A stretch of DNA of 64,000 bases from Promethearchaeota archaeon (GTDB lineage Archaea; Asgardarchaeota; Lokiarchaeia; Sigyniarchaeales; SOKP01), in contig JAUVXW010000013.1 in NCBI GenBank assembly GCA_030603385.1, positions 10,635 through 74,634 of the forward strand. Direction: 5' to 3'. The translations under genes and the position numbers were made by a program. This document shows, piece by piece, positions 5,543-61,095 of the stretch (position 1 is its first letter; the number at the start of each line of letters is the position of its first letter). The notes under the pieces are model-generated. The model saw only the letters and a list, made by a program, of their open reading frames with translations. It was not told the origin of the DNA and searched no databases.

Positions 5543-8212
5543 TCAATATTTTATCTGTTCGATTAAATTAGGAATCTCTTGGATCTCCAATTTATATTTT
5601 GAATCTAAATCGAAAATTCCTTCTAATATATTTTTTATACTCTCTAAACTATAGATTAAATTTTCTAGATAACCGATCATATCACCTTTGTGAATTACTA
5701 TTTTATATTCTTCCACAAAATAATTACAAATTTCCTCTATTGTTAATTTATGCTCTACTCGTAAATTTAATATGATTTTCTCAAGGTTTAATCGTCCACA
5801 ATCGCAATATGGTGAATCTTTACAACTACAATTGAAAATTTCACTAATCCATTTCGAAATGAATTCTATAAATTCCTGAGAAAATGTTTTTCTTTTTCTT
5901 ACATAATCTGCATTCAAAAGAGAAAGAACGCTACCACTAAATAAATTATTACTAAGATACCTCATATTCACATTTTTAGCTAAATCTGCTACAATTCCTT
6001 TAGACAAATATACGTTTTTAATAGGTTTAAGGTCAAGAGCAATTGTAATTACTGTCTTCTCCTTATTCTTTATTATTTCCACAATTTCTAAACATTGTTC
6101 TGTAGTTAGGAATGACTTTGCGATAGCTTGCCCTAAATGAGTGGATTTATAGACAAAATTTTCTTTTATTCTTATTGTCCTCATCAGATTTAATTTTTTC
6201 AAAAATGAATCTAACTCATATTTGTTATTAATTAAAAGTTCGAAATATTTATAGATTATCTCTTTTTTAATGCCTTGATTAAACATAGATATAAAGGCTA
6301 ATAATTCTGTTAAACTTTTACTTTCATTTGGGAGTAATTCAAAATCTTTAATTTTTCCATTTAATAATTTAATAGCTATTACTTCTTCAGTTTCTTTCAT
6401 TTTAGGAGAATAAACCTTTTCTGGCTCCACAAGTAAATATGCATAACCTAAATCATGCTTTCCTAGCCTTCCACTGCGTCCTAACATCTGTTCAAATTCT
6501 GCTACGCTTAGCCATTTAATACCCATAGCTAAGGATTCAAAGATTACTTGACTTGCTGGAAGATCCACACCAGCAGCTAATGCAGCAGTCGCGATTACTC
6601 CGGCAATTTTTTGAGCTCTAAAGTCACCTTCAATTGCTTTTCGTTCCTCATTAGTTAACCCAGAATGGTATGAAGATACATTGATTCCTCTTTCTTGCAA
6701 GTGAGCGGTGATAATTTCACATTTGTTCCTAGTGTTGGTAAAAATTATCGACTGACCTTTAAAACCATATTTAGATTTTTTAAAGTAAGCCGCTTTAACT
6801 AATTTTGAAATTCGTTTGTATTTTTGAACTTCATTAAGGCATAGTATTAGATGTCTCTCAATGGGAACAGGTCTGTTGTTATACATAATCAACTTGCAAT
6901 CTAATTTTTCAGCTAAAAGTTTTGGTTCTCCTAACGTTGCACTTAAATATAAAAATTGAGCTTCATTATAAAGCAACTTCATACGAGCAATGAATCCATC
7001 TAATAAGTAACCTCTCTCTAAATCAATCATGGTTTGAATCTCGTCAACAATAATCGTACTAATATTTCCTAGTAGTGACTTTTTGCCACTTCTTAAAACA
7101 TAATCTATTGCTTCATATGTAGCTATAATTATATCTGCATTGATTAAATCCTCTTGGGCTGTTTCTTCACTTTTTTCAAATAAAGATGCCCCTACTTTTT
7201 TTAATATTTTTAAGTTTAAAGATTTATATCTTTCCTTAAATTCTTCAGTTCTTAAATTAGCTAAAGCTACAATTGGTACAAGATAAAGTATTTTTGCACT
7301 TCTATTCTTTAAAACTTTCGAGACACCTGCTAATTCTCCTACTAATGTTTTCCCTCCTGAAGTTGGCGCTATTATTAATTGGTTTGAAGATTCACTTATT
7401 AAACCTTTTTCAATAGCTAGAGCTTGTATTGGCAACAATAAATTTAGATTAAATTGCTTTAATACCTTTTTAAAAGGCTGCGGGATCTCTAAGTCCTCAA
7501 TTTTTTTATTAAGATATTTTTTATTAATTGGAGATTTTTTTTCAATATCGTAAAGTGTAATATCTCTATTGGTTGCAGGATTAAAATCCGCTTGAAATGC
7601 GGTTAAAATTTTTTTTATATTTTTAAATTTTAGAATCATATGTGTAAAAAAGCTTTTTAACTTTGGATTAATCCGACCTTGATTAACTAAACCTCTATGT
7701 CTTAGTTCCCTAGAAATGATATTATATGCACATTCAGAGCATAATATTTGATTTTTAAATGATAATATTTGAGATCCCTCGTTTAAAATTGTGAATTTCT
7801 GAGTACTTAAGCAAGATTTACAAAAAGTTAAATTCTTTATTTTATTTTCATCAAATTGAAAGTTTTTAAGCATTTCATTTATAATGGTGAGATTTTCAAG
7901 AGAAGATTGGCTTGAAAATGCAATAAATCTGTTTTTATCAGAAAGTAAAAATTTTTTAAAGAGGTGAGGGTTAATTGGAGCGACATTTCCATCTTTTTCA
8001 ATTTTATTAAAACTTAATGGACGAATTCTATTTTTGAAATCTAAACCAAAAAGAACAATCCCCCTAAAAAAAGGTTCGTTGATATAGGAAAATTTGAAAC
8101 CTTTTTCCTTAAACTTTTTGATATAAAAGAAATTAACATTAAAAATCAGATCTTTCTTAGATTTTTCTTTACGATCTAAAACAATAAAAAAATCCCTTGA
8201 AGATATGCTCAA
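5543..8212 (-). CDS. Superfamily-2 (Ski2/Hel308-like) DEAD/DEAH-box helicase with Cys-rich N- and C-terminal modules
   Basis: APTSGGKTLVGELA (motif I), VDEIQ (II), SATL (III), TAALAAGVDLPA (V), QMLGRSGR (VI); Cys clusters CKSC..CSEC near the N-terminus and CSCKDSPYCDCG near the C-terminus. Confidence 0.8.
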   Translation of the reverse strand: MSISSRDFFIVLDRKEKSKKDLIFNVNFFYIKKFKEKGFKFSYINEPFFRGIVLFGLDFKNRIRPLSFNKIEKDGNVAPINPHLFKKFLLSDKNRFIAFSSQSSLENLTIINEMLKNFQFDENKIKNLTFCKSCLSTQKFTILNEGSQILSFKNQILCSECAYNIISRELRHRGLVNQGRINPKLKSFFTHMILKFKNIKKILTAFQADFNPATNRDITLYDIEKKSPINKKYLNKKIEDLEIPQPFKKVLKQFNLNLLLPIQALAIEKGLISESSNQLIIAPTSGGKTLVGELAGVSKVLKNRSAKILYLVPIVALANLRTEEFKERYKSLNLKILKKVGASLFEKSEETAQEDLINADIIIATYEAIDYVLRSGKKSLLGNISTIIVDEIQTMIDLERGYLLDGFIARMKLLYNEAQFLYLSATLGEPKLLAEKLDCKLIMYNNRPVPIERHLILCLNEVQKYKRISKLVKAAYFKKSKYGFKGQSIIFTNTRNKCEIITAHLQERGINVSSYHSGLTNEERKAIEGDFRAQKIAGVIATAALAAGVDLPASQVIFESLAMGIKWLSVAEFEQMLGRSGRLGKHDLGYAYLLVEPEKVYSPKMKETEEVIAIKLLNGKIKDFELLPNESKSLTELLAFISMFNQGIKKEIIYKYFELLINNKYELDSFLKKLNLMRTIRIKENFVYKSTHLGQAIAKSFLTTEQCLEIVEIIKNKEKTVITIALDLKPIKNVYLSKGIVADLAKNVNMRYLSNNLFSGSVLSLLNADYVRKRKTFSQEFIEFISKWISEIFNCSCKDSPYCDCGRLNLEKIILNLRVEHKLTIEEICNYFVEEYKIVIHKGDMIGYLENLIYSLESIKNILEGIFDLDSKYKLEIQEIPNLIEQIKY

Positions 8213-23857: not shown

Positions 23858-25567
23858 TTATTTTTTCCTTGCATAGATCTCTTTATTTCTATCAATTTCT
23901 TTAAGAATTTTTCTTCCTTCTTTATTAAATAATGATAGATTTATTTCACTTTTTCTACTTAATGAACCTGTAAAAATTTCTTCTTGATTAGCAAATATTA
24001 TTATATTCTGACTTGCATACAACGGCGCAGCTCTTAAGATAATTCTATCTTTCCCTACTTCAAGGTCAAGATTAATCCTTTCCTTTTTTGATTTACCGGT
24101 TCGATAAGTGGATAGATTAGTATATTGATCTGATCTAAATTTTGATTTTTTAGGTGCTATTGGATTAATTACAATATCTTGTCCAAATGAATAAATTTCG
24201 AACTCTAATTTACGTGTTTTATAATCTCGTACTTCAACTACCGGACGAGCTAAATCTTTATCTCTAAATCCTGATGGAACTTTAACTGTCATTTTTATAA
24301 CTAATACTGCAGAAATGTCACCACCCTCTATGAAGATTATTGTATCTATTATTGAAGGCAACATACCAAGTTCTATTCGACCCATAAACCTTTGGAGTGC
24401 ATCTATTGCAGAAGAGGAGTGAACAACACCAACCATTCCTACACCAGACAAACGAAAATCAGCATATACTTCGAAATCTTTGGTAGTTCTTACCTCATCA
24501 AAAATTGTAAAGTCTGGTCTAACGAGTAGGAGAATATCAGCAGAATTTTCAAGACTTCCTTCTAATTTTGTATATTGAGTAATTTCTGGGCTTACCTGTA
24601 AATCTCTCACACTTTCTAATGTTTTTACTACTTTATTTTGACTTAAATAAAAGTTTGCTAATGCGGCGCAAAATGTACTTTTTCCTGCTCCGGGAGATCC
24701 ACATACTAAAATACCTTCTGCTGTTTCTAACCTGTTTTGTAATTTCGCATCAATTGAATAGTCAGATAGCTTCAAACTCACAAGTGGTCGAACTGCGGTA
24801 ATCTCAACATCATTAGAAAAGGGAGGTCTTGTAATAACTATTCTAAATTCTCTTAGTTGAGCAACTACCGCTCCAATTTTCTCAATCTCAATAAAAGAGT
24901 GATCGTCTTCCCTTACATTCTCAATTACTTCAAGAGCAATATCTTCAATGAGCTTAGGTGTAATCACTTCATTATCAATTTTTTCTAATCGCCAATTTCC
25001 GGGTGATCCTCTCTTCGCATAGGCAGGTAGATTCCTTTTGAGATGTACACTCATTGTCTTATCGTCAAAATAATCTAATAGTTTAAGAGAGAGAGCTTCT
25101 TTTGTTTTATGGATCCCTCTTTCTTTTACATAAAAAACATCTAACCCTTCAAAAATCCCTACATCACCCTGAATTCTATCAGCAGTTATTAATACAGCGT
25201 TGTTTTTCAGTGTGGTTTCCCTTATCAGAGCATCAAGTTCTCCTCCTGGTGCCATTTTTATTTCTTCTCTAGTAGGACGTTTTCCTACTATTTCCAACTT
25301 TATTTTATTTTCTGCATTTAATTCACGTAATGATTTTAGAACATTTAAGCCAAAGAATCCAATTTCTTTATGGATATTTGTCCTATATTCAATTTCAGCA
25401 ATAACAATGTTGGGAATTAAAATTTCTGGTTCTTCCCCTAACTCTCCATCTTCAATTAAATCAAGGATTAAACCGTTAAATATTACAGACGTGTCACAAA
25501 CGAATTTATCTGATCGCTCCTTAACCAAACCCTCCCCGGGCGTTAATTTCCTTATATTATTCACCAT
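23858..25567 (-). CDS. PIN-domain + P-loop ATPase (PilT-like archaeal ATPase, COG1855-type architecture)
   Basis: N-terminal PIN-like segment (FVCDTSVIFNG...ADRIQGD), Walker A GSPGAGKSTF, Walker B-like FTIFDEVR, then a C-terminal extension. Confidence 0.7.
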   Translation of the reverse strand: MVNNIRKLTPGEGLVKERSDKFVCDTSVIFNGLILDLIEDGELGEEPEILIPNIVIAEIEYRTNIHKEIGFFGLNVLKSLRELNAENKIKLEIVGKRPTREEIKMAPGGELDALIRETTLKNNAVLITADRIQGDVGIFEGLDVFYVKERGIHKTKEALSLKLLDYFDDKTMSVHLKRNLPAYAKRGSPGNWRLEKIDNEVITPKLIEDIALEVIENVREDDHSFIEIEKIGAVVAQLREFRIVITRPPFSNDVEITAVRPLVSLKLSDYSIDAKLQNRLETAEGILVCGSPGAGKSTFCAALANFYLSQNKVVKTLESVRDLQVSPEITQYTKLEGSLENSADILLLVRPDFTIFDEVRTTKDFEVYADFRLSGVGMVGVVHSSSAIDALQRFMGRIELGMLPSIIDTIIFIEGGDISAVLVIKMTVKVPSGFRDKDLARPVVEVRDYKTRKLEFEIYSFGQDIVINPIAPKKSKFRSDQYTNLSTYRTGKSKKERINLDLEVGKDRIILRAAPLYASQNIIIFANQEEIFTGSLSRKSEINLSLFNKEGRKILKEIDRNKEIYARKK

Positions 25568-33097: not shown

Positions 33098-34654
33098 TTA
33101 AAAAAAGATAAAATCTAGATCCTCAGATTCACAAAACCTATTTAGCTTTCCGGGAAGGTCATTGTTAGATAAATCGATGTATTGTAATGAATTAAGCTCT
33201 TTTTGCTCCTTGAACTTAATAATTTGATTATTTTCTAAGCTAACTCCTTGTAATCTCCTTAGCCCATCTAATCCTTCCAGAATAGTGATCTTATTATTTT
33301 TAAGTCGAAGGTATCTTAAATCATGTAATAATTTTAAACCTTTTATTTTTGTTATTTGATTATAGCTTAAGTCTAAATCATTTAGATTCTTAAGCGTTTC
33401 CAACCCTTTAATCTCTGTAATGCGATTTTTCTCCAATCTTAAACTTTGTAAGTTCTCAAGATATGCCAATCCTTCAATATTATAGATGCCGTTCTTGTTT
33501 AGATTTAACCCCTGTAATTTATGTAAATTACTCAATCCTGTGATTCTTTCAATATTATTATAACTTAAAATTAATCGTTCCAAATTTTTTAAATTTTCTA
33601 AACCTTTAATTTTATGAATAGAATTGAAATAAATATCTAATTTTTTTAGGTTTTGAAGATAATCAAGCCCTTTAATTTCATTAATTTTATTACTTGCAAG
33701 ATATAACTCCTCCAAGTTTTTTAAATTCTCAAGTCCAGAAATCTCTTCGATCTTATTAGATGATAAATTAAGGAACTTCAAGTTTGTTAATGCGCTTAAT
33801 CCATTTATAGCCTTGATTTTATTTCGATCTAAATTCAACCTTTCCAAGCTTTTTAGATTCTCAAGATTATCAATAAAAGTTAGTGATTCTTGTGAAATAT
33901 TTAATCCTTTTAATCCGGAAAGCTTACTCAGACCTTTTATATCGCTTATTCTCTCAACATTCTTAACAGTTAGTGTTCCATTTTTCATGAAAGCCTTTTT
34001 TCCCTTGCACAAGACATATTGATAATTCAATAATTCTTTTTCGGGGCACATTACTTGCATATAATCAAATAACTTATCCTTCATTTCATAAAGTGTTTTT
34101 GTGTTGTTGAATTTCTCAATGAAAAAGTCTTTGATCCTATCTTTTTCGTCTAAAGCTAAGTTCTGAAAAAGGGAATGGAATTCTTCATGAGTCAAAAAAT
34201 TATAATACTTCTCTTCTAATAAAAATTGAATTGTGCTCCAGTTTTTGCTTGATAATTTTTTCGCAATCTCTTCTTTAAAAACTTTTTTGGCTAATGGGTC
34301 TCCTACTTCTGTTAATTTTTTTAGTAATGGGAAGGCAAGGTTTGAATGTATAAGGTTTGTATTATAATCTTCCTCGTACCACACTTGAAGATTACTGCTA
34401 TGTCCCAAAAACTCTAATTCAGGTGAGATTCTCTTTGATTTATTATTGTAAGAAGGATCTAAAGACATATCGAGTTTTACAGCAACTTCATCAATAGATC
34501 CAACGTCGTCTAAAAGGTAGATCTCGTCTACAGAAATATCCAATAATAAAAATTTACATTGGTCAAATCTCTCCCCGTTTACATATATGATAGTTTCTTT
34601 TCCTTCAAGCTTTAAGGCAATATATTCATTTACCTTGAACTCTTTAGTATCCAT
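33098..34654 (-). CDS. Leucine-rich-repeat protein (about 12 SDS22-type 22-residue LRRs) with a conserved N-terminal domain
   Basis: Repeats LENLKSLERLNLDRNKIKAING / LSALTNLKFLNLSSNKIEEISG / LENLKNLEELYLASNKINEIKG ... . The N-terminal ~170 aa are shared with the ORF at 36829-38349. Confidence 0.8.
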   Translation of the reverse strand: MDTKEFKVNEYIALKLEGKETIIYVNGERFDQCKFLLLDISVDEIYLLDDVGSIDEVAVKLDMSLDPSYNNKSKRISPELEFLGHSSNLQVWYEEDYNTNLIHSNLAFPLLKKLTEVGDPLAKKVFKEEIAKKLSSKNWSTIQFLLEEKYYNFLTHEEFHSLFQNLALDEKDRIKDFFIEKFNNTKTLYEMKDKLFDYMQVMCPEKELLNYQYVLCKGKKAFMKNGTLTVKNVERISDIKGLSKLSGLKGLNISQESLTFIDNLENLKSLERLNLDRNKIKAINGLSALTNLKFLNLSSNKIEEISGLENLKNLEELYLASNKINEIKGLDYLQNLKKLDIYFNSIHKIKGLENLKNLERLILSYNNIERITGLSNLHKLQGLNLNKNGIYNIEGLAYLENLQSLRLEKNRITEIKGLETLKNLNDLDLSYNQITKIKGLKLLHDLRYLRLKNNKITILEGLDGLRRLQGVSLENNQIIKFKEQKELNSLQYIDLSNNDLPGKLNRFCESEDLDFIFF

Positions 34655-36828: not shown

Positions 36829-38349
36829 ATGCTTGAATTTCAATTATATGGTGTGTTAATTATCCCATTAGTTATCTTTTTCATAGCGATTAGACAATTA
36901 AATCAAAAAAAAGAATTTAAAATTAACCAATATCTCAAATTAAAACTTGAGGGCGGAAGAACTAATGTATATGTAAATAATCGACGATTTATGCAATGTA
37001 TGTACCTGTTATTAAATATTGCCGTTGATAGAATTGAGGAATATGATGAGATTGGATCAATCGATGAAGCTGCTGTAAAATTAGATCGTTCTATGGAAAG
37101 AAATCATCGTAAAGTTCCACCAGAAACAGAATTTTGGGGGCATTGTTCTAATATACAAGCTTGGGCTGACAATGAATATGATACAAGAATTCTTCATCGA
37201 AATATAGCTTTCCCTTTACTAAAAGCACTTGTTGATGCGGGAGATCCTATTGCTAAACGAAAATTTAAAGAAGAAATTGCGTTAAGATATGCAACAGGAC
37301 ACCCTACTGTTATTAGATTCTTAACCCAAAATGGTTATTTACATTACTTAACCGAAGATGAATTTGAAAGTCTGTTAATTGATATAGACTTTCCAAGTAT
37401 TGATGAATATTCCAGAAAAATCATACCAAAACTAGATAAAGCTTTAGATCCTGAATCTATCAAACTAATAAGACAACATACTTCTACCTTCATAAATAAA
37501 TTTCGATTTAAATATAAATATCTAATTTTATTGAAGGTTTTAGAGAAAGTGCCGGATAAAAGACAAGAGTTTGTAGAAATTATTTATAATAAATATAAGA
37601 ATGTTAGAAGCTTTCCTATACTTAAATTTTTGAATAAGGCTCAAATCAATTTCAACAAATTGGACCTTAAAATTATTTCTTATAATGAAAGATTAATTGG
37701 TCTAATTTTAGATTCAAAAACTAACTTAAAAAACAAAATGATTGAAAAAATAGAAGATATCAAAGGATTTGAAGAATTTTCTGAAGATATTGAAGAAATA
37801 GATTTGAGTAATAATAGGATAAATAAAATAATAGGACTTGAGAATCTTAAAAACCTAAAGAAATTATATTTAAAAAACAACTACATTGAAAAAATCGAAG
37901 GGTTGGAAAACCTAACTAATTTGGAATTTTTAGATCTTTCGGGAAATATTAATATCGAAGAAATTCCGGAATGTTTAAATAAATTATCTAGCCTAAAAAC
38001 TGTTAAATTAACAGGATGTAGAATTGGAAAATTCTCTGAATCAACATCACGATTTTTTTGGATGGGACAAAATTTTAGATATTTTACAAAATATACAAGC
38101 GAAGACATTAAATATTATGAAGAAACTCATGCTTCAAGGGCAGGAGTTAATGGAAGACTTTATAAAAATTTTGTGAAATGGTTATTTAAAATAAGGAAAA
38201 TGATGAAGAAATGTAATTTCAATTATGACGATATCAAAAATTTCGAAAAGAAAACCAATTTACAAGCAATTTATTCCGGAAAACCAACAAAAACTTTCTT
38301 GAAGCACCTTGATGACAAAAAACAAATAAGAATAACAAAATTTATGTAA
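36829..38349 (+). CDS. Membrane-anchored LRR protein (4-5 LRRs), paralogue of the 33098-34654 N-terminal domain
   Basis: N-terminal TM helix (YGVLIIPLVIFFIAI). Shared domain (GSIDEAAVKLD, NIAFPLLKALVDAGDPIAKRKFKEEIA). LRRs IEEIDLSNNRINKIIGLENLKNLKKLYLKNNYIEKIEGLENLTNLEFLDLSGN. Confidence 0.75.
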   Translation: MLEFQLYGVLIIPLVIFFIAIRQLNQKKEFKINQYLKLKLEGGRTNVYVNNRRFMQCMYLLLNIAVDRIEEYDEIGSIDEAAVKLDRSMERNHRKVPPETEFWGHCSNIQAWADNEYDTRILHRNIAFPLLKALVDAGDPIAKRKFKEEIALRYATGHPTVIRFLTQNGYLHYLTEDEFESLLIDIDFPSIDEYSRKIIPKLDKALDPESIKLIRQHTSTFINKFRFKYKYLILLKVLEKVPDKRQEFVEIIYNKYKNVRSFPILKFLNKAQINFNKLDLKIISYNERLIGLILDSKTNLKNKMIEKIEDIKGFEEFSEDIEEIDLSNNRINKIIGLENLKNLKKLYLKNNYIEKIEGLENLTNLEFLDLSGNINIEEIPECLNKLSSLKTVKLTGCRIGKFSESTSRFFWMGQNFRYFTKYTSEDIKYYEETHASRAGVNGRLYKNFVKWLFKIRKMMKKCNFNYDDIKNFEKKTNLQAIYSGKPTKTFLKHLDDKKQIRITKFM

Positions 38350-53106: not shown

Positions 53107-53829
53107 CTAAAAATGAATAACAAATTTCTTTTTTCGTTGTTCTAACGAAACAGCTAAAAACGCCTTATTTTGTACTAAATTAAAAATCAACTCAGCAATT
53201 TCTTCATTATTCAGCTTAAGCGAACCACTGATTTCATAAAATAATTTTTCTAGCAAAAATCCGCCTTTAGTTTTATGAGCAAGGACTTTAGCGAATTGAA
53301 AAACTTTTTTAGATTTTGGAGATAATTTTTTTCCCTTCGTTGAGCCTAATTTATACGGTAAGGTTAAATATAGATGGAAAACATCTTCAATGATATCTTC
53401 TATACTCTGTTTTGATTTAGATTGCTTCCGAAAAATTGAAATGTCTCCTTGAAATTGGGTATATAATCCTAAAATTTCTCTTTTGTATTGACCCTCAAAT
53501 AATTCACAAAAAAATTTTAAAACCTCCCTTGTGAATAGAGTGGGTAAATTATTGAGAATTAAACTAATCCAGATCATTTTACCTGCCCGAGTAATTAGAT
53601 ATTTTCCCTCTAGAGTTGCTTGTTCAATTTCCCCTGGTTCTAATGGTAAATCTAAAATTTCATATTGAATTGAACTCCGAAATGTATCAAGAAAATCAAG
53701 ATCAAAACTACCCGCAGTTTTATAGTAAATGATCTCTCGAGATTCTCTATGAGTTATAATAACGTATTCAATTGATAATGCTAAAGATAAATATTCTGAA
53801 ATAAGAATTCTTACCTTCCACTGTGATTT
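53107..53829 (-). CDS. Hypothetical protein; first ATG at 53577, but the frame stays open through the repeat copy up to 53829
   Basis: Hand translation upstream of the ATG gives ...SQWKVRILISEYLSLALSIEYVIITHRESREIIYYKTAGSFDLDFLD...LITRAGK-MIWISL. This N-terminal stretch is the segment repeated at 56653-56830 and 58414-58604. No canonical start in the extension. Confidence 0.4.
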   Translation of the reverse strand, partial: KSQWKVRILISEYLSLALSIEYVIITHRESREIIYYKTAGSFDLDFLDTFRSSIQYEILDLPLEPGEIEQATLEGKYLITRAGKMIWISLILNNLPTLFTREVLKFFCELFEGQYKREILGLYTQFQGDISIFRKQSKSKQSIEDIIEDVFHLYLTLPYKLGSTKGKKLSPKSKKVFQFAKVLAHKTKGGFLLEKLFYEISGSLKLNNEEIAELIFNLVQNKAFLAVSLEQRKKKFVIHF

Positions 53830-53870
53830 CTATGTATATTGAATAGTGTCTTTTTTATTTATAATTTTGC
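53681..53870 (-). repeat. Copy 1 of a ~180 bp dispersed repeat (putative promoter + 5' coding fragment)
   Basis: Aligns by eye at roughly 90% with 56653-56830 and 58414-58604, e.g. cagttttatagtaaat.atc.ctc.agattctctatg.gttata and ctaaagataaatattctgaaata.gaattc.taccttccactgtgatttc. Confidence 0.85.
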
Positions 53871-54032
53871 GTGTTATTTCTTAAAATGTATCGTTAAATT
53901 CAGAATTTAAAAAAGCTATTGTTTTATGAGTTATGAGATAAAATTGTTCAAATTCCTTTGAGTACACAAAAGTATTAAATACTATATTATAAACAATTTA
54001 TTTAACAAACTTTAAAAAAATGGCGAAATATT

Positions 54033-56474
54033 ATGAAAAAGACAATAAAAAGAGTATTGGTTATACTATTAGGAAGTATTCTATGGTTATCAATTTTTAT
54101 AAGTAATGAATTTTTCAATGAAACTAACTTATATTCAAATATAAATAATCCTGTCCAATTCGCTAATGGCCCAATCCCACCATCAATGGGCCAATCACTT
54201 GTCTTTGGAACAATAGCGGGCCCTATAGATTTGGATCCGCACTTATGCTACGATTCATCTAGTCAAGCCGTAATTTCCCAAATTTGTGAGGGTCTCTATA
54301 AATTCAATACCACAGATCCTACATATCCAATAGTTCCGGTACTTGCAACAGCACTACCGACAATCTCACCAGATGGTTTAAATATAACCATTCCTCTTAG
54401 AACAGGTGTCACATTTACAGATGGAACGCCGTTTAATGCAACCGCTGTAAAATGGAATTTTGACAGATTAAACTATTTCTTAAATTATTCAGGGAACCAG
54501 TTTTTACCTGCTCCGTTTAATATACCACTTCCTTCAGATGGTTCTATCCAAAAAACTACAGCAGAAATGCTATTTACATTAAACAGCGTTCCCATTATTA
54601 ATAGAACAGAAGTTATCGGCCCATATACCATAAAAATTGTGATGAATGTACCAAAAGCATCCTTTATTAATCTGTTAACTTATCATTCCACCTTTTTCCA
54701 CTCACCTACATCTGCACAAGCCCAAGGGAAAGAACTTGACTATCTCACGTATGCCGATGCCGATACTTTAATTGGGACGGGTCCTTTTATCTTCCAATAT
54801 TATGCCACCAATATTGAAGTAAATTTTATTGGGAACCCGAATTATTGGCAGGGTGCTCCATTATTAACAGAGCTAATATTTTCAATTATTCAAGATACTA
54901 ATGCTTTGAATTTAGCGGTACTTGCAGGTGATATTGACTTATGTGATGCCCCAGCGTCAAGTTTCTTTGATACATTCAGAGCTGATCCAGACATAACCCT
55001 CCTGGAAGCCGGACCTACTGTATTAACTAGTTATATGGGATTTAATGGATATATGGTGAATACGACATTTCGGAAAGCAATCTCATATGCGATTAATTAT
55101 TCATATCTAATCGATGTAGTTTTGTCAGGTGAAGCATATAGATTGAAATCTCCAATCCCCGAAGGCATACCAATGTCGAACTATTCTTTCAATTATCCCG
55201 TATTTGACCGTGCATATGCACAATCAATCATGCAATCTATGGGATATGGAACAACCTTTACGACAGATGCTGATTGGACTACTCATGCGGATGGAGGAGG
55301 ATGGGGGTTTGGATGGAATATTACAGCCCAAACTGAAGGAGTAACCCGAAGAGACTTCGCTATACTTATTTCGGACAGTCTAAGATATCTCGGGATTAAT
55401 GCTCCCGTAGTACAGATCCCTTTTGGGGATTTACTCACATGCATACAAAATGATGTTGGGTTCTTAAGACGAGACAGAATCCCAATGTACATGCTTGGAT
55501 GGGGTCCTGATTATATAGATCCTGAGAATTACATTTCACCTTTATACAGTAATAGATCATCAATTTGGGTCAATACCTATGATTATGAATTAGAGCAATT
55601 AATGCTCGCGGGAGAAACAACAGTCGATATTCTTGCTAGACTAGCAATTTATAATGAAATTCAACGGAAATTGGTTGAAGAACTCTACTTTTTTGCTTGG
55701 ATCGCGACAGGCAAGAATTATGATGTTTATCAAAATTACGTTAAAGGATGGGTTCCTAATGCTATTAATGTAATCGATTTCTATCCTGTATATCTCGATA
55801 TACCAGATTTGATAGCACCAACGATCATTATATTTTTTCCAATTCTTAATCAAATATATAGTTATAATTCTCCCGACTTTGCTATTACTGTCAGTGATGT
55901 TTCTCCAATAAATTCTACATGGTATACTATAGATGGAGGATTAACAAATTACACCTTTTCCGGACTAGCAGGAACTATAAATCAAACAGCATGGGATAAT
56001 GAAAATAGTGGTCTGATTACTTTAAGATTCTACGCAAATGATTCGGCAGGAAATGTAGGTTTTACAGATAGAATTGTCATAAAAGATGTGTTAACACCAG
56101 AAATTACAATTAATTCCCCAATTGCAGGTGAGGAGTTCACGGAACCCCCTGATTTTACTATTTCTATTATTGAAGGGAATTTAGACTCCACTTGGTATAC
56201 GGTAGAAGGAAGCCTGACCCAATATCCATTCATAGGATTAACTGGAACAATCCATCAAAATGCATGGGATGACGCACCAGAAGGAGATGTTACTATAGCT
56301 TTTTATGCTGAAGATAGAGCAGGAAATATGGGATCTAAAAGTGTAGTAGTTAAGAAAAGAATCCCATCAAAAGGACCAGAAATTCCAGGATATAATGTAT
56401 TGATAATAACTGGTATTTCATTCATTGCTCTTTTCATTATAACGCAGAAGAGAAGAATAAATATAAAAAAATAA
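54033..56474 (+). CDS. Cell-surface family-5 solute-binding protein (DppA/OppA-like) fused to two Ig-like repeats and a PGF-CTERM-like anchor
   Basis: Signal/anchor helix, SBP_bac_5-like core (GPIDLDPHLCYDSSSQAVISQICEGLYKF ... MLGWGPDYIDPENY). Two ~95-aa tandem repeats (STWYTIDGGLTNYTFSGLAGTINQTAWDN / STWYTVEGSLTQYPFIGLTGTIHQNAWDD). C-terminal PEIPGYNVLIITGISFIALFIITQKRR. Confidence 0.7.
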   Translation: MKKTIKRVLVILLGSILWLSIFISNEFFNETNLYSNINNPVQFANGPIPPSMGQSLVFGTIAGPIDLDPHLCYDSSSQAVISQICEGLYKFNTTDPTYPIVPVLATALPTISPDGLNITIPLRTGVTFTDGTPFNATAVKWNFDRLNYFLNYSGNQFLPAPFNIPLPSDGSIQKTTAEMLFTLNSVPIINRTEVIGPYTIKIVMNVPKASFINLLTYHSTFFHSPTSAQAQGKELDYLTYADADTLIGTGPFIFQYYATNIEVNFIGNPNYWQGAPLLTELIFSIIQDTNALNLAVLAGDIDLCDAPASSFFDTFRADPDITLLEAGPTVLTSYMGFNGYMVNTTFRKAISYAINYSYLIDVVLSGEAYRLKSPIPEGIPMSNYSFNYPVFDRAYAQSIMQSMGYGTTFTTDADWTTHADGGGWGFGWNITAQTEGVTRRDFAILISDSLRYLGINAPVVQIPFGDLLTCIQNDVGFLRRDRIPMYMLGWGPDYIDPENYISPLYSNRSSIWVNTYDYELEQLMLAGETTVDILARLAIYNEIQRKLVEELYFFAWIATGKNYDVYQNYVKGWVPNAINVIDFYPVYLDIPDLIAPTIIIFFPILNQIYSYNSPDFAITVSDVSPINSTWYTIDGGLTNYTFSGLAGTINQTAWDNENSGLITLRFYANDSAGNVGFTDRIVIKDVLTPEITINSPIAGEEFTEPPDFTISIIEGNLDSTWYTVEGSLTQYPFIGLTGTIHQNAWDDAPEGDVTIAFYAEDRAGNMGSKSVVVKKRIPSKGPEIPGYNVLIITGISFIALFIITQKRRINIKK

Positions 56475-56652
56475 TTTTAATTAATTTTTTTTTAAAACCT
56501 AATCTTTGAACCTTACAGTGTCAGTTATTACTAAATATATAAGAAGAATTAATGAATAATACAGTATAGGTGAAAATCTATACATATACAAATCTAAAAT
56601 TAATAAAATTTGAATGGAAAAAAAAAATCTTTTCTTATCATATTAGGAATTA

Positions 56653-56830
56653 AATCAGAATCAAAATCATTAGCAGTTTTATAGTAAATGATCCCTCTAG
56701 ATTCTCTATGTGTTATAGTAATATACTCAATTGATATTGCTAAAGATAAATATTCTGAAATAGGAATTCCTACCTTCCACTGTGATTTCTTATGTATATT
56801 GAATAGTGCTCTATTTATTTATAATTTTGC
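56653..56830 (-). repeat. Copy 2 of the ~180 bp dispersed repeat (orphan fragment)
   Basis: Same sequence family as 53681-53870. The conserved minus-strand frame ends after ~60 codons (…YYKTANDFDSDLIPNMIRKDFFFPFKFY*). Confidence 0.85.
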
Positions 56831-56980
56831 TTGGCGTATTAATGATAAAATCAATTGATATTAAAAACAATTTAATTGTAATAATTGTAAATTTTAACAA
56901 CGGGATATCCTAAAACAATGGATGACCAATTAATTGATATGAAAACCTAAAATAGAAGAAAAAAAAAAAGCAAAGTAATC

Positions 56981-58342
56981 TTATTGGTTTTTTAAATGAT
57001 ATTTTTTAATCATTATTAGAACTGCGCAACTAAGTATTCCTATTATAATCCATAAATTGAACCCTGGAATTGTGCCACCGGTACCACCATTACCCTCTTT
57101 ACTTGGTATTAATAATTCCAAATTTTTGATTATAAAAGCATCCAAACCAGCAATTCCGGGTGTCCTTCCGACCATGTATACATTCCCAGATGTATCTACT
57201 TCGACATTATGTCCTATATTCCTACCTGCTGTAGTATTGCCTTTCCATGACCCTACTCGGAGTAAAGTACCATTTGAAGCAAATTTCATTAATAAAGCTG
57301 AACTCTCATAGTTGGCCATCTCAGTAGCACCTGTAATGAAAATGTTAGAATTATCATCTAATGTAATACCATAAGCCCATGAAGTGATATCTTGGTATGT
57401 GCTCTCCCAGAGTAACTCTCTTGATGGATTATATTTTCTTAAAAATAACGCCCCATTGGAATCCGTTCCATAAAATCCTGTAACATAGAAATTTCCCGAA
57501 GAATCTACTATAACATCCATAACTCGTCCGCTATAATATGCTGGCTCATCCCAAGTTATATTCCAGAATTGATAACCAGTAGTAGCATTAAAACAAGCAA
57601 TCAGAGGGATATCCTTACTTAGAGTATAGTTACGCTCTTGACCAACAACATAGATTAAATCGTTAAAAGTTGCAATTCCGTGAATGCTTTTCCTAGAATC
57701 ATCTTTTATACCAAAAGTTACGTTCCAAACTTCAGTTCCACCGGAATCGAGTTTTAGAATGAAATATTGATATGTATACGAAGGATGAGAACCATATGGC
57801 ATCTCTCCAATAAAATAAATGTCACCTGTTTGACTTAACGTCATATCTGAAGTATAACACCCGGTCGCTCCCGATTTAACCCATGTTCTATTCCATAGGT
57901 AATTTCCTAAACCGTCATACTTTCCTAGAAAACATTCATATCTTGAGGTACTTTGATTAAGGTAATTACTTCCTACATAAATTTCTGTTCCACTAACTGC
58001 AAGTGCTCTAAACTTATCTTGACTGCCACCGTCCCTGGTATCATTCCAAAGCTGTGTTCCTGTTTCGTCAAATTTAGCGACAAATTGATCTATAGTTGTA
58101 TTATACGTTTGCCCTCCAATAATTATATCATCGTTACTGTCAATGGCAACATCAAAAGCCATATCATCATTATCATCAAATCTACTCCATAATGAAATCC
58201 AATCATAAGGTGCTGATAAGTTAACAGATGTAGTCTCTGGAACATGAGTTCTTTGGTTTACCGTTAAATTTATTGGTTCAGTTATAAATAGAACAAGGCT
58301 GATAAATAATACTGTTTTAATTAATATTCGATTTATTTTCAT
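56981..58342 (-). CDS. Secreted beta-propeller-repeat (SBBP-like) protein with PGF-CTERM sorting signal
   Basis: Probable start at MKINRILIKTVLFISLVLFI (signal peptide). Recurring D.(S/T)GN.Y..G motifs (TGDIYFIGE, SGNFYVTGF, NSNIFITGA, SGNVYMVGR). C-terminal GGTGGTIPGFNLWIIIGILSCAVLIMIKK. Confidence 0.65.
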   Translation of the reverse strand: MKINRILIKTVLFISLVLFITEPINLTVNQRTHVPETTSVNLSAPYDWISLWSRFDDNDDMAFDVAIDSNDDIIIGGQTYNTTIDQFVAKFDETGTQLWNDTRDGGSQDKFRALAVSGTEIYVGSNYLNQSTSRYECFLGKYDGLGNYLWNRTWVKSGATGCYTSDMTLSQTGDIYFIGEMPYGSHPSYTYQYFILKLDSGGTEVWNVTFGIKDDSRKSIHGIATFNDLIYVVGQERNYTLSKDIPLIACFNATTGYQFWNITWDEPAYYSGRVMDVIVDSSGNFYVTGFYGTDSNGALFLRKYNPSRELLWESTYQDITSWAYGITLDDNSNIFITGATEMANYESSALLMKFASNGTLLRVGSWKGNTTAGRNIGHNVEVDTSGNVYMVGRTPGIAGLDAFIIKNLELLIPSKEGNGGTGGTIPGFNLWIIIGILSCAVLIMIKKYHLKNQ

Positions 58343-58413
58343 AATACAATATATATCGTAGGAAGTATAAAAAGAATTAATGTGCTTTACACAAAAATGT
58401 AAAAAATATACGA

Positions 58414-58604
58414 GATGAATCAAGAAAGTCAGGATCAAAATTACCCGCAGTTTTATAGTAAATTATCTCTCGAGATTCTCTATGTGTTATAATAATATAT
58501 TCAATTGATATTGCTAAAGATAAATATTCTGAAATAGGAATTCCTACCTTCCACTGTGATTTCTTATGTATATTGAATAGTACTCTATTTATTTATAATT
58601 TTGC
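58414..58604 (-). repeat. Copy 3 of the ~180 bp dispersed repeat, immediately 5' of the beta-propeller gene
   Basis: Same family. The conserved frame gives SQWKVGIPISEYLSLAISIEYIIITHRESREIIYYKTAGNFDPDFLDSSRIFFTFLCKAH* and stops just before the MKINR start. Confidence 0.85.
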
Positions 58605-58825
58605 CTAATATCAGTTAAAGAATTAATAACTTAATCTTGGGAATCATTATCATCAATATTGAGAATAAAAGTGCAGATGGCGCACTCAAAGGCACAAAGG
58701 AGTATATACTATTTACAAAAAAGTAAAAATATAAATAGCTACTTATTAATTTATATTTTACACCGAAATCTAATCTAAAAAAAAAAAAACTATAAAAAGA
58801 AATTATATAGAGGTGGTAATAAAAA

Positions 58826-59140
58826 ATGTTATTTATTTCATATTGGGAGTTAAACCCAGATTTTGATCCCTCAGAATTAGCTGAAATTACACAAATGCTC
58901 ATGAGTAAAAAACTCTACCCCGCTGAAGGAGTTAATGACATCGCTTTTCATGTAAGTACATCGGACTATTGGGGAATTAGTATAAGTGAATCCGACAGTG
59001 AAGAGGCAATGGCTAGAAGTACTAATATGTGGAGAATTGCCAAACCTGGCTACATAAAGCTTGTTAAAACCACACCTGCAATGGAAGTAGCTAAAGCACT
59101 ACCAGTAATAATGAAACTAAAAAAAGATATAAAAGGTTAA
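58826..59140 (+). CDS. Hypothetical protein
   Basis: 104-aa ORF with ATG start and normal composition; no motif recognised. Confidence 0.4.
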   Translation: MLFISYWELNPDFDPSELAEITQMLMSKKLYPAEGVNDIAFHVSTSDYWGISISESDSEEAMARSTNMWRIAKPGYIKLVKTTPAMEVAKALPVIMKLKKDIKG

Positions 59141-59247
59141 TATTAAACTGACTTCCATTCTTTCTTCATCAAGGATCAAGAGTAAAATTATTTATCAAAA
59201 TCTTAATTTTCTTTTTTTTTTGATTAGAACTGTTAATATAATTTTAA

Positions 59248-60210
59248 TTATCTATTTTGAGAATTTTTAGCAGCAAATTCATCGATTTCTTTCTGATCTT
59301 TACTATTATCATCATTTTTCTTGTTTTCTAAATATTCATAAATTTTATTCCCTGAAGCAAGTGGGAAAATATTTTTATCTTCTTTAAAAGTTTTAAGTGA
59401 TTTCATGCGTTTTTTAGACCAATACCCCCGGGGAGGTGTAGAAATTCCCCATTTCTTACACCATTTCTTAACTGTTTTATCTGATACTCCATAATTTTTG
59501 CCAATTTTAGTTAACGGTAATTGCCATACAAGTTCTTCCAGTTTTTTCTTTGTAATTTTGAATTTTTTTTTATTAGAACGCCAAGCATTAGCTTTAATTT
59601 TAGCTATTCTACTTTCCTCAGTCTCAAAATTATGTCTTTTACTCTGTAAGCTATTATGATAATTTGCTAGCATTTCATTGTATAATTCGATACCTAGACT
59701 CATAGAATATCCATGACCCTTAATTAATCTAGTTCCTATAAAACTCCGACTTCTTTTTTCATAGATTTTAAAAGGTAAATTAAAATGGCTCTTAATTTGT
59801 TCTAAAAATATTTTACTCCCAGTAATGATTCGAGTAGTACCAGTTTTCCCATCTCCATCATAGAATCCAAGAAGAAAAGCTAAATATAATTTACGGTTAC
59901 TTAGATTTGGTAATTCTATAATTTTTGATTTTCTAGGTACAACTCCCCATCTAACTAAATCTTTTACAATTTTTTTATTAACAAATTTAACTACCACAGT
60001 ATGATCTCTTTCTCTGTAATGCTTACGATTTGGATCAATATCTAGTGTTATAATAAACCGATCTATAAGTATCTCATCATCTTTACCAATTTCGATCCCC
60101 AATCTATAAGCCTTCTGATTTCTAGTTTCTATATAACCCTCAGCATAAAGAAATCCTAACCAATAAGATTTTTCTTTTATATCAATATCATCAAAATAAT
60201 TTTCCTTCAA
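59248..60210 (-). CDS. Free-standing double-motif LAGLIDADG homing-endonuclease-like protein with C-terminal HTH
   Basis: Two LAGLIDADG motifs (YWLGFLYAEGYI and LAFLLGFYDGDGK) ~100 aa apart. C-terminal LTKIGKNYGVSDKTVKKWCKKWGI HTH. TTG start 67 nt downstream of the tRNA-Leu 3' end, same strand. Confidence 0.75.
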   Translation of the reverse strand: MKENYFDDIDIKEKSYWLGFLYAEGYIETRNQKAYRLGIEIGKDDEILIDRFIITLDIDPNRKHYRERDHTVVVKFVNKKIVKDLVRWGVVPRKSKIIELPNLSNRKLYLAFLLGFYDGDGKTGTTRIITGSKIFLEQIKSHFNLPFKIYEKRSRSFIGTRLIKGHGYSMSLGIELYNEMLANYHNSLQSKRHNFETEESRIAKIKANAWRSNKKKFKITKKKLEELVWQLPLTKIGKNYGVSDKTVKKWCKKWGISTPPRGYWSKKRMKSLKTFKEDKNIFPLASGNKIYEYLENKKNDDNSKDQKEIDEFAAKNSQNR

Positions 60211-60277
60211 CCTATTTTAGATTTTAAAAATTAGATAATAAACTAAAAGAATTTTTTATATTCGAGTGAAATAAGTG

Positions 60278-60453
60278 TGGAGGGGGTGAGAATTTCTACT
60301 GCTTCCGATGTGACAAGCAATATTCGAACTCACGAATTAAGGCTCTTTACGGAAACCTTAAAGAGTGGCCTTTGCCACTGGATCTTAAGTCCAGCACCTT
60401 TAGTTGACCCATTTTGGCGTAAAATGGCTTTGACCAAGCTCGGTAACCCCTCC
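60278..60453 (-). tRNA. tRNA-Leu (anticodon UAA), class II, interrupted by three putative non-canonical introns
   Basis: Minus strand: GGAGGGG-TT-ACC-GAGCTTGGTCAAA-[~30 nt]-GGT-G-CTGGA-CTTAAGA-TCCAG-TGGCAAAGGCCACTC-[~29 nt]-GTGAG-TTCGAAT-[~31 nt]-CTCAC-CCCCTCC-A. Perfect 7-bp acceptor, 5-bp anticodon and T stems, 3-bp D stem. U8, GG in the D loop, U33, G37, TTCGAAT T-loop, A73 discriminator. No encoded CCA. Confidence 0.75.
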
Positions 60454-60717
60454 AACATTAGAAAATAGTTTCTGTTTTTTAAAAGCTCTAAAAATATAAT
60501 TAAAAGCTTTTAAGGGTGACAATAATTCAAAGTTATAATTTTAATTTAAATTTTTCTTAAGCTTCTGATATTAATGGTTAGATAAGGTTTAAAGAAAAAA
60601 CAAAAAGAAATAAATAATTGTAAAATATTAAAATAATATCGTACTCACAATTCATCAACATGTACTTATAGATTTAGATTATTATCTTAAAATAGATAAA
60701 TTATATGGTTAAATATC

Positions 60718-61095
60718 ATGCCTGTAGGTATTCTTGTAATTCGTTGGGATAACGAAATTGGCCCAATAAATGAAGGTTTTTATCCGGAGACTTTAAAGAT
60801 CACTAACAATCTACTCACGCAAGTTTATTCGAGTCACAGATACCAGAGTCTCAAACCCGGCTTCGCGAGCATCGCGCTCAAGAATAATAAAGTAGTATCA
60901 TTTTTCTCAGGAGTAGGACAAGATTTTATTTCAGTTGAGAATTATGTTGTGGCTCTTATACTTCGAAGAGATGAAAAACCTGGAAAATATCGAGAGGTAT
61001 TAAAGACAATTGCGGCTGAAATTCTTGAAAAAATCCCAGATGACTCATTTCGGGAGGTTTTACCTGGGCTTTATTACCAATTAGCCAAGGTATAA
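60718..61095 (+). CDS. Hypothetical small protein, possible longin-like fold
   Basis: 125 aa. MPVGILVIRWDNEIGPI / ITNNLLTQVYSSHRY / GFASIALKNNKVVSFF / NYVVALILRR / KYREVLKTIAAEILEKI, a beta-beta-alpha-beta-beta-beta-alpha pattern by eye. Confidence 0.35.
   Translation: MPVGILVIRWDNEIGPINEGFYPETLKITNNLLTQVYSSHRYQSLKPGFASIALKNNKVVSFFSGVGQDFISVENYVVALILRRDEKPGKYREVLKTIAAEILEKIPDDSFREVLPGLYYQLAKV

Follow-up and report, generated by a model that had tools for sequence, protein, structure and literature searches.

A probable Asgard tRNA-Leu(UAA) gene with three short BHB-type introns, and variable intron content among its relatives

On the minus strand of the window (the whole 64-kb stretch of DNA that was analysed), positions 60453-60278 hold the elements of a class II tRNA-Leu(UAA), complete and in order, within a total of 176 nt. 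Judged from the sequence, this is very likely a functional single-copy Asgard tRNA-Leu(UAA) gene, whose pre-tRNA, of ~176 nt, would carry one short BHB-type intron each in D loop, variable region and T loop; ‘single-copy’ is judged here from the 64-kb window and from relatives, and a second gene with another anticodon stem may lie elsewhere in the genome. The parts of the gene, and a TATA-like box upstream of it, are as follows.

60278..60453, minus strand: whole tRNA-Leu(UAA) gene, 176 nt, from G1 (60453) to A73 (60278); the spliced product is tRNA-Leu(taa)
60430..60453, minus strand: exon 1, 24 nt, mature nt 1-24 (spliced alignment); acceptor 5' strand GGAGGGG, U8 U9, D stem ACC, D loop GAGCUUGGUCAA (to A21)
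60400..60429, minus strand: intron 1, 30 nt; D loop, between A21 and A22 (21/22)
60367..60399, minus strand: exon 2, 33 nt, mature nt 25-57 (spliced alignment); A22, D stem GGU, G26, anticodon arm CUGGA-CUUAAGA-UCCAG, variable arm U-GGC-AAAG-GCC
60337..60366, minus strand: intron 2, 30 nt; variable region, between the 3' strand of the variable stem and the final UUC
60323..60336, minus strand: exon 3, 14 nt, mature nt 58-71; UUC, T stem 5' strand GUGAG, T loop UUCGAA (54-59)
60292..60322, minus strand: intron 3, 31 nt; T loop, between A59 and U60 (59/60)
60278..60291, minus strand: exon 4, 14 nt, mature nt 72-85; U60, T stem 3' strand CUCAC, CCCCUCC, A73
60475..60484, minus strand: TATA-like box TTTTAAAAAA, -31 to -22 from G1; putative promoter

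Gene structure and splice junctions

The 5' end of the gene reads GGAGGGG-TT-ACC-GAGCTTGGTCAA... and the 3' end ...CTCAC-CCCCTCC-A, giving a 7-bp acceptor stem (GGAGGGG...CCCCTCC) with an A73 discriminator. The D arm has an ACC/GGT stem and GG within its loop, the anticodon arm (CTGGA-CTTAAGA-TCCAG, with UAA in CUUAAGA) is uninterrupted, and the T arm combines a GTGAG/CTCAC stem with the loop sequence TTCGAAT. The long variable arm, A73, the 3-bp D stem with G13-A22 and the leucine anticodon are those of a class II tRNA-Leu. CCA is absent from the gene, A73 being followed directly by CAC, and the exons have a G+C content of 56% vs 30% for the window. A plus-strand 63-aa GTG orf (60277-60468) overlaps the tRNA gene exactly and is almost certainly spurious.

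Standard tools passed over this locus. ARAGORN reported zero tRNAs across the 64-kb window and none in the precursor, with or without its intron mode, and Rfam gave zero matches across the whole window at the gathering threshold and at E<=1; at E<=10, a search of the locus returned just a 14-bit partial tRNA match over the anticodon arm. Removal of 30, 30 and 31 nt leaves a mature tRNA of 85 nt with the variable region U-GGC-AAAG-GCC-UUC, and ARAGORN called tRNA-Leu(taa) for each of three junction variants once the three blocks had been removed, bearing out the initial annotation of a three-intron tRNA-Leu(UAA) with none of its introns at 37/38. A structural scan of the window (acceptor stem plus interrupted T arm) recovered the locus and one further match, at the background level of shuffled windows (0-5 matches); this second match, at 1379-1231, lies within an orf and was rejected as a further hidden interrupted tRNA.

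Every junction pair was scanned for a strict BHB, in which the 4-bp central helix is bordered by two 3-nt bulges, with an outer and an inner helix beyond them, and the cut falls after the second nucleotide of each bulge. The top ranks went to the junctions of introns 3 and 2, each accompanied by a neighbour shifted by one register. Both neighbours were rejected: the shifted 33-nt version of intron 3 would shorten the T loop, and the shifted 28-nt version of intron 2 conflicts with the empty-site junction GGCC|TTCG. The intron 2 motif, [AAGG](CC|A)CTCTTTA...TAAAGAG[CCTT](AA|T) (central-helix strands in square brackets, bulges in parentheses), has a complete central helix (4/4) and an inner helix of 7 bp; its score was equalled in 0/50 shuffles, and the mini-substrate folds with z = -2.9, its MFE structure favouring non-BHB pairings. 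Intron 3 lies within T stem (5 bp)-[TTCG](AA|T)ATTGCTT...AAGCAGT[AGAA](AT|T)-CTCAC, with an inner helix of 7 bp and 3/4 central pairs (G.A); the comparison with shuffles gave 1/50 (p 0.02), and the mini-substrate fold has a z of -3.06. The MFE structure of the whole precursor also favours non-BHB pairings.

Relatives L005 and L001, which are without introns 2 and 3, read GGCC|TTCG and TTCGAAT|CTC, and because such relatives with empty sites show the joined exons, the junctions of both introns are fixed exactly. Intron 2 had initially been placed at ~60362-60334 (~29 nt), which the empty-site relatives show to be off by 3-4 nt, the correct position being 60366-60337. The borders first given for introns 1 and 3 yield the same product as 60429-60400 and 60322-60292, with AAAG and T repeats at the junctions. 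Of the two alternative helices proposed earlier for intron 2, TTAAGG/CCTTAA belongs to the single-sequence MFE structure yet is unconserved; the conserved pairings are AAGG/CCTT and CTCTTTA/TAAAGAG.

Intron distribution and turnover among relatives

Public genomes and metagenomes were searched with an uninterrupted 21-mer from exon 2, which gave 98 + 117 loci (about 215), and a spliced aligner run over all of them yielded 143 distinct complete versions of the gene with 291 introns. None of the 143 is intron-free: 36 versions have one intron, 68 have two, 37 have three and 2 have four. The sites are listed below by position in the mature tRNA.

After mature nt 24 (21/22, D loop): 141/143 versions
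After mature nt 71 (59/60, T loop): 66 versions
After mature nt 52 (variable loop): 27 versions
After mature nt 46 (43/44): 15 versions
After mature nt 15 (15/16): 14 versions
After mature nt 68 (T loop, poorly resolved): 10 versions
After mature nt 57 (the variable-arm site of the window's gene): 9 versions

ARAGORN recognised tRNA-Leu(taa) in 143/143 spliced products vs 2/143 unspliced ones. The products comprise 74 distinct mature sequences, in which changes in the acceptor and T stems are compensatory. In an alignment-free count, 78-92% of central- and inner-helix cells are paired in the BHB register at the five best-supported sites and 67% at 15/16; pairing drops to 24-52% once the 3' partner is slid by 1-3 nt. 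At any one inner-helix position, between two and five types of Watson-Crick pair occur.

The variable-arm site after nt 57 holds nine distinct introns from ~4 unrelated sequence families, all of which keep [AAGG](CC|A)...[CCTT](AA|T), and one relative has a compensatory change across exon and intron (GAGG/CCTC). At the T-loop site, a fixed-register alignment of 61 distinct introns (61-64 relatives) has 83.7% of cells paired vs 65.4% after shuffling (0/500), and a covariation score of 0.50 vs 0.19 in shuffles (0/500). Both sides change in all eight inner-helix pairs at this site, and slid registers reach 36-56% pairing vs 83.7% in the BHB register.

Uninterrupted copies with this anticodon arm were found only in Methanomicrobiales, other seemingly intron-free genes being cut by contig ends. 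Each relative genome has one anticodon-arm match, except for one MAG with two contigs, one of them cut by the contig end. The three introns of the window's gene have no copies outside tRNA-Leu genes in the 1.5 Mb of sequence searched.

Intron content varies over short evolutionary distances. A 125-aa protein encoded beside the tRNA gene (60718-61095) is identical in sequence on at least 23 other contigs, which carry the same tRNA gene with different intron sets, and contigs with 95-97% identical flanks differ in intron content. L002, for example, has an intron between 43 and 44 and is without the variable-arm intron, while the D-loop insert of L003 is 60 nt long and made up of two units. L003, L001 and L005 each have two abutting D-loop BHB introns at one position, and these share GACT, which serves as 3' central strand of the first (with exon GGTC) and as 5' strand of the second (with AGTT); because this strand is shared, both BHBs cannot form together. 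The 60 nt of L003 could be removed as a single intron instead, with 3/4 central pairs and an inner helix of 8 bp.

Differing intron content at 95-97% flank identity implies either fast intron turnover or exchange of gene segments. The 3' part of the window's gene (60278-60399, with introns 2 and 3 and the GTGAG/CTCAC T stem) is 94% identical to that of L014, whose flanks are 83-89% identical, and just 85% identical to that of L003, whose flanks are 97% identical; L003 has its T arm and T-loop intron in common with L002. This mosaic suggests recombination, or that lineages have exchanged segments of the tRNA gene. We tentatively regard tRNA-Leu(UAA) as a hotspot where BHB introns are still being gained, lost and exchanged, at ~eight sites, in natural Lokiarchaeota-like populations; the mosaic pattern fits segment exchange as well as transposition, and falls short of proving recent in-situ mobility. 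If turnover were recent and in situ, these loci would form a natural series of filled and empty sites for working out the mechanism of archaeal tRNA-intron mobility.

Intron 1, alternative explanations and proposed maturation

Intron 1 contains the hairpin CCATTTT-ACGCC-AAAATGG, which is not stacked on the central helix (the inner helix is non-contiguous), and its junction slides within AAAG with the product unchanged. In the register homologous to that of relatives, the central helix GGUC/AACU has 3/4 pairs, the BHB score is 9 (p ~0.16 vs shuffles) and the fold z is 0.07; an alternative register, TTGG/TCAA, has 4/4 pairs and gives the same product. The homologous D-loop junction GGTCAA|...|AGGT is found in 141/143 relatives, whose introns here end in a very conserved gggtcaagac(t/c)..at|AGGT. 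Relatives with an intact 3' strand have a complete central helix (4/4) and form strict BHBs, e.g. [GGTC](AA|t)ttgacc...ggtcaa[GACT](AT|A) and [GGTC](AA|a)ggtctt...aagacc[GATT](AT|A). Intron 1 of the window ends in gggtcaa--ctaa, with a 2-nt deletion in the conserved gggtcaagacta that no other version among the 143 has (the L117 copy is identical). Because this deletion takes part of the conserved 3' strand, the motif is only a relaxed one, and the intron 1 junction is the weak point of the gene. The initial annotation proposed to judge the three junction pairs by whether BHB-like structures can form there; good motifs are present at introns 2 and 3, and intron 1 has no strict BHB. A longer D loop, with GTCAACTAAA read as exon, was rejected, that stretch being the 3' BHB strand of the intron in relatives.

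A disabled allele is the only serious rival to a functional gene. As an incipient pseudogene, it would owe to the 2-nt deletion a D-loop intron that cannot be removed, and no mature tRNA would come from it. The deletion is unique among 143 versions, all others keeping gggtcaagac(t/c), and intron 1 combines the lack of a strict BHB with a fold equal to that of shuffles; yet all exons are intact with perfect stems, and the same gene lies, identical, on an independent contig of a second assembly (L117). Three of the four central pairs are kept, the alternative TTGG/TCAA register leads to the same product with four, and a C.A mismatch at the same central-helix position occurs in five distinct relatives. 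The EndA type of Asgard archaea is, moreover, reported to take relaxed motifs (PMC5829648). The presence of one anticodon-arm match per relative genome (one MAG excepted) and the expected abundance of UUA codons at 30% GC also speak against loss of this tRNA, and we consider a disabled allele unlikely.

There is very little to recommend reading the inserts as elements of another kind, i.e. self-splicing introns, miniature mobile elements or retained segments of the tRNA. Intron content does vary among near-identical strains, as that of mobile DNA would, and the BHB does not always appear in MFE folds, but group I and II introns are far longer than 30-31 nt, and the inserts have no terminal inverted repeats and no target duplications beyond the 1-4 nt of junction ambiguity. 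What unrelated inserts conserve is exactly a 4-bp helix with a 3-nt bulge on either side, always in the same register relative to the junctions, and retention would destroy the D, variable and T arms. The idea that tRNA-like pieces came together by chance in AT-rich intergenic DNA, with which the silence of ARAGORN and Rfam and the 0-5 matches of the loose structural scan in shuffled windows would agree, can safely be dismissed given exons of 56% GC in a window of 30% GC, the same exons in ~215 contigs, 143/143 complete versions that splice to tRNA-Leu(taa), and strong covariation.

For the preferred reading, a functional gene with BHB-type introns, maturation may be pictured as follows. Transcription would start under control of the TATA-like box ~27 nt upstream; a similar motif, WTTWAWA, is enriched at this distance, with starts at -32 to -29 in 60/149 distinct upstream regions of orthologous genes. 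EndA would cut both 3-nt bulges of each BHB, and a ligase of RtcB type would then join the exons and circularise the introns. RNase P and RNase Z would trim the ends, and, because the gene is followed by CAC, CCA would be added post-transcriptionally, giving an 85-nt class II tRNA. Archaeal tRNA splicing by EndA and ligase has been reviewed (PMC4090602), and Asgard EndA, including that of a Lokiarchaeota genome, is of (alpha-beta)2 type with an L1 loop and has a broad substrate specificity that accepts relaxed motifs (PMC5829648). Splicing by a broad-specificity endonuclease, of the protein-spliced BHB type of archaea, as first proposed for this gene, can be counted as supported so far as the sequences go; the enzymes, splicing itself and the order of intron removal are inferred, and the weakened intron 1 motif may still be cut efficiently.

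Related systems, host lineage and neighbouring DNA

The three-intron architecture is already documented and is ordinary for Asgard archaea; the added value here is comparative and lies with the gene family more than with the window's gene alone. The rarity implied by likening the gene mainly to those of Crenarchaeota was overstated, multi-intron tRNAs of Asgard archaea, including a three-intron tRNA-Leu(TAA), having been published (PMC11291895; PMC5829648). Multi-intron tRNA genes are known from Atabeyarchaeia and Freyarchaeia (Valentin-Alvarado et al. 2024, PMC11291895), and those of Atabeyarchaeia include tRNA-Leu(TAA) genes that are 182-184 nt long and have three introns (PMC11291895, Supplementary Data 4). 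The window's gene shares with these the superphylum, the isoacceptor, the length class (176 vs 182-184 nt) and the number of introns, a likeness drawn at the level of the whole gene. It also shares non-canonical intron positions and the tendency to be missed or under-called by standard tRNA finders (PMC11291895), but comes from a Promethearchaeota/Lokiarchaeia-like class. That study is without strain-level intron presence or absence for one orthologous gene, and among open-access papers and preprints no literature was found on this gene family in Lokiarchaeia or on strain-level intron polymorphism.

In Crenarchaeota, three introns per tRNA and the positions 20/21, 22/23, 45/46, 56/57 and 59/60 have long been known (PMC4090602); tRNA-Pro of Pyrobaculum islandicum, as summarised in that review, has introns at 25/26, 37/38 and 56/57 (Sugahara 2007/2008, reviewed in PMC4090602). 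Thermoproteales resemble this system in having up to three BHB introns per gene, sites outside the canonical one (59/60 as well as neighbours of 21/22 and 45/46) and motifs relaxed to hBH/HBh'; their EndA is likewise (alpha-beta)2 and has an extra loop, and introns are gained rapidly (PMC4090602). The system described here differs in its Asgard host, in the absence of a canonical 37/38 intron from the window's gene and in a D-loop intron that nearly all versions of this gene carry across Asgard phyla, its 3' strand being conserved. To the extent that the review describes it, intron transposition in Thermoproteales (Fujishima et al. 2010, cited in PMC4090602) offers a further parallel: related strains differ in their introns, unrelated introns occupy the same site and one BHB rule holds at all sites. 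Unlike the introns of that system, those of the window are without copies outside tRNA-Leu genes, as noted above for 1.5 Mb.

Incomplete tRNA sets in Asgard genomes have been read as a sign of undetected disrupted genes (PMC5829648), and a gene type invisible to ARAGORN and Rfam probably explains part of this ‘missing tRNA’ problem (PMC5829648). A UUA-decoding tRNA should be heavily used in a genome of 30% GC, so that its maturation would depend on three or more endonuclease cuts per molecule. The set of 143 versions and 291 introns could serve the study of archaeal tRNA intron gain and loss. No known prokaryotes are more closely related to eukaryotes than Asgard archaea, whose intron-rich tRNA genes and (alpha-beta)2 endonuclease bear on the origin of eukaryotic tRNA splicing.

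By its closest matches, the host is an Asgard archaeon, Promethearchaeota/Lokiarchaeota-like (Promethearchaeota being the current name of the Lokiarchaeota phylum). Among the 80 matches listed of the 98 genome-contig loci, all but four come from Asgard MAGs (Promethearchaeota, Hermod-, Hod-, Thor- and Odinarchaeota) or from unnamed archaeal MAGs; the exceptions are three Methanomicrobiales and one bacterial MAG. The flanks in the window are 95-97% identical to those of L002 (GCA_019057975.1), L003, L144 and L006. A Thermoproteales-type crenarchaeon as the source, suggested by the parallel drawn initially, does not agree with these closest contigs, which belong to Promethearchaeota and other Asgard MAGs. 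Elsewhere in the window, LRR (internalin-like) orfs at 33098-34654 (minus strand) and 36829-38349 (plus strand), a PINA-type ATPase (23858-25567) and a Hel308-like helicase (5543-8212) fit an Asgard/Lokiarchaeial origin. A contig labelled Nanopelagicaceae bacterium (L008, DATKTW010000129.1) harbours a tRNA-Leu(UAA) of Asgard type, with introns in its D and T loops, and is probably a binning contaminant in an actinobacterium-labelled MAG.

Downstream of the tRNA gene, the window has three copies (75-93% identity) of a 179-nt non-coding element, at 53693-53871, 56652-56830 and 58426-58604. The element is single-copy in at least 39 related loci, on the same strand and downstream of tRNA-Leu at distances of ~130 nt to 6.7 kb. 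In L072 and similar relatives the tRNA is followed directly by the element, and the window therefore contains ~6.4 kb of extra DNA (53871-60277), made up of three blocks that each end in a 179-nt copy and contain the following orfs.

59248-60210 and 58826-59140: block 1
56981-58438: block 2
54033-56474: block 3

The 179-nt element starts with a TATA-like box and has no orf; it was also considered as a structured RNA, a possibility rejected on finding no consensus structure, and probably serves the downstream gene as promoter and leader. No integrase was seen in the gap between tRNA and element, which looks like an insertion hotspot or a cassette-like array. The 320-aa orf of block 1 (59248-60210, minus strand), directly 3' of the tRNA gene, has weak Pfam matches to LAGLIDADG_3 (E 5e-5) and RWP-RK (E 7.5e-4), and it may encode a protein of a mobile block, either DNA-binding or derived from a homing endonuclease.
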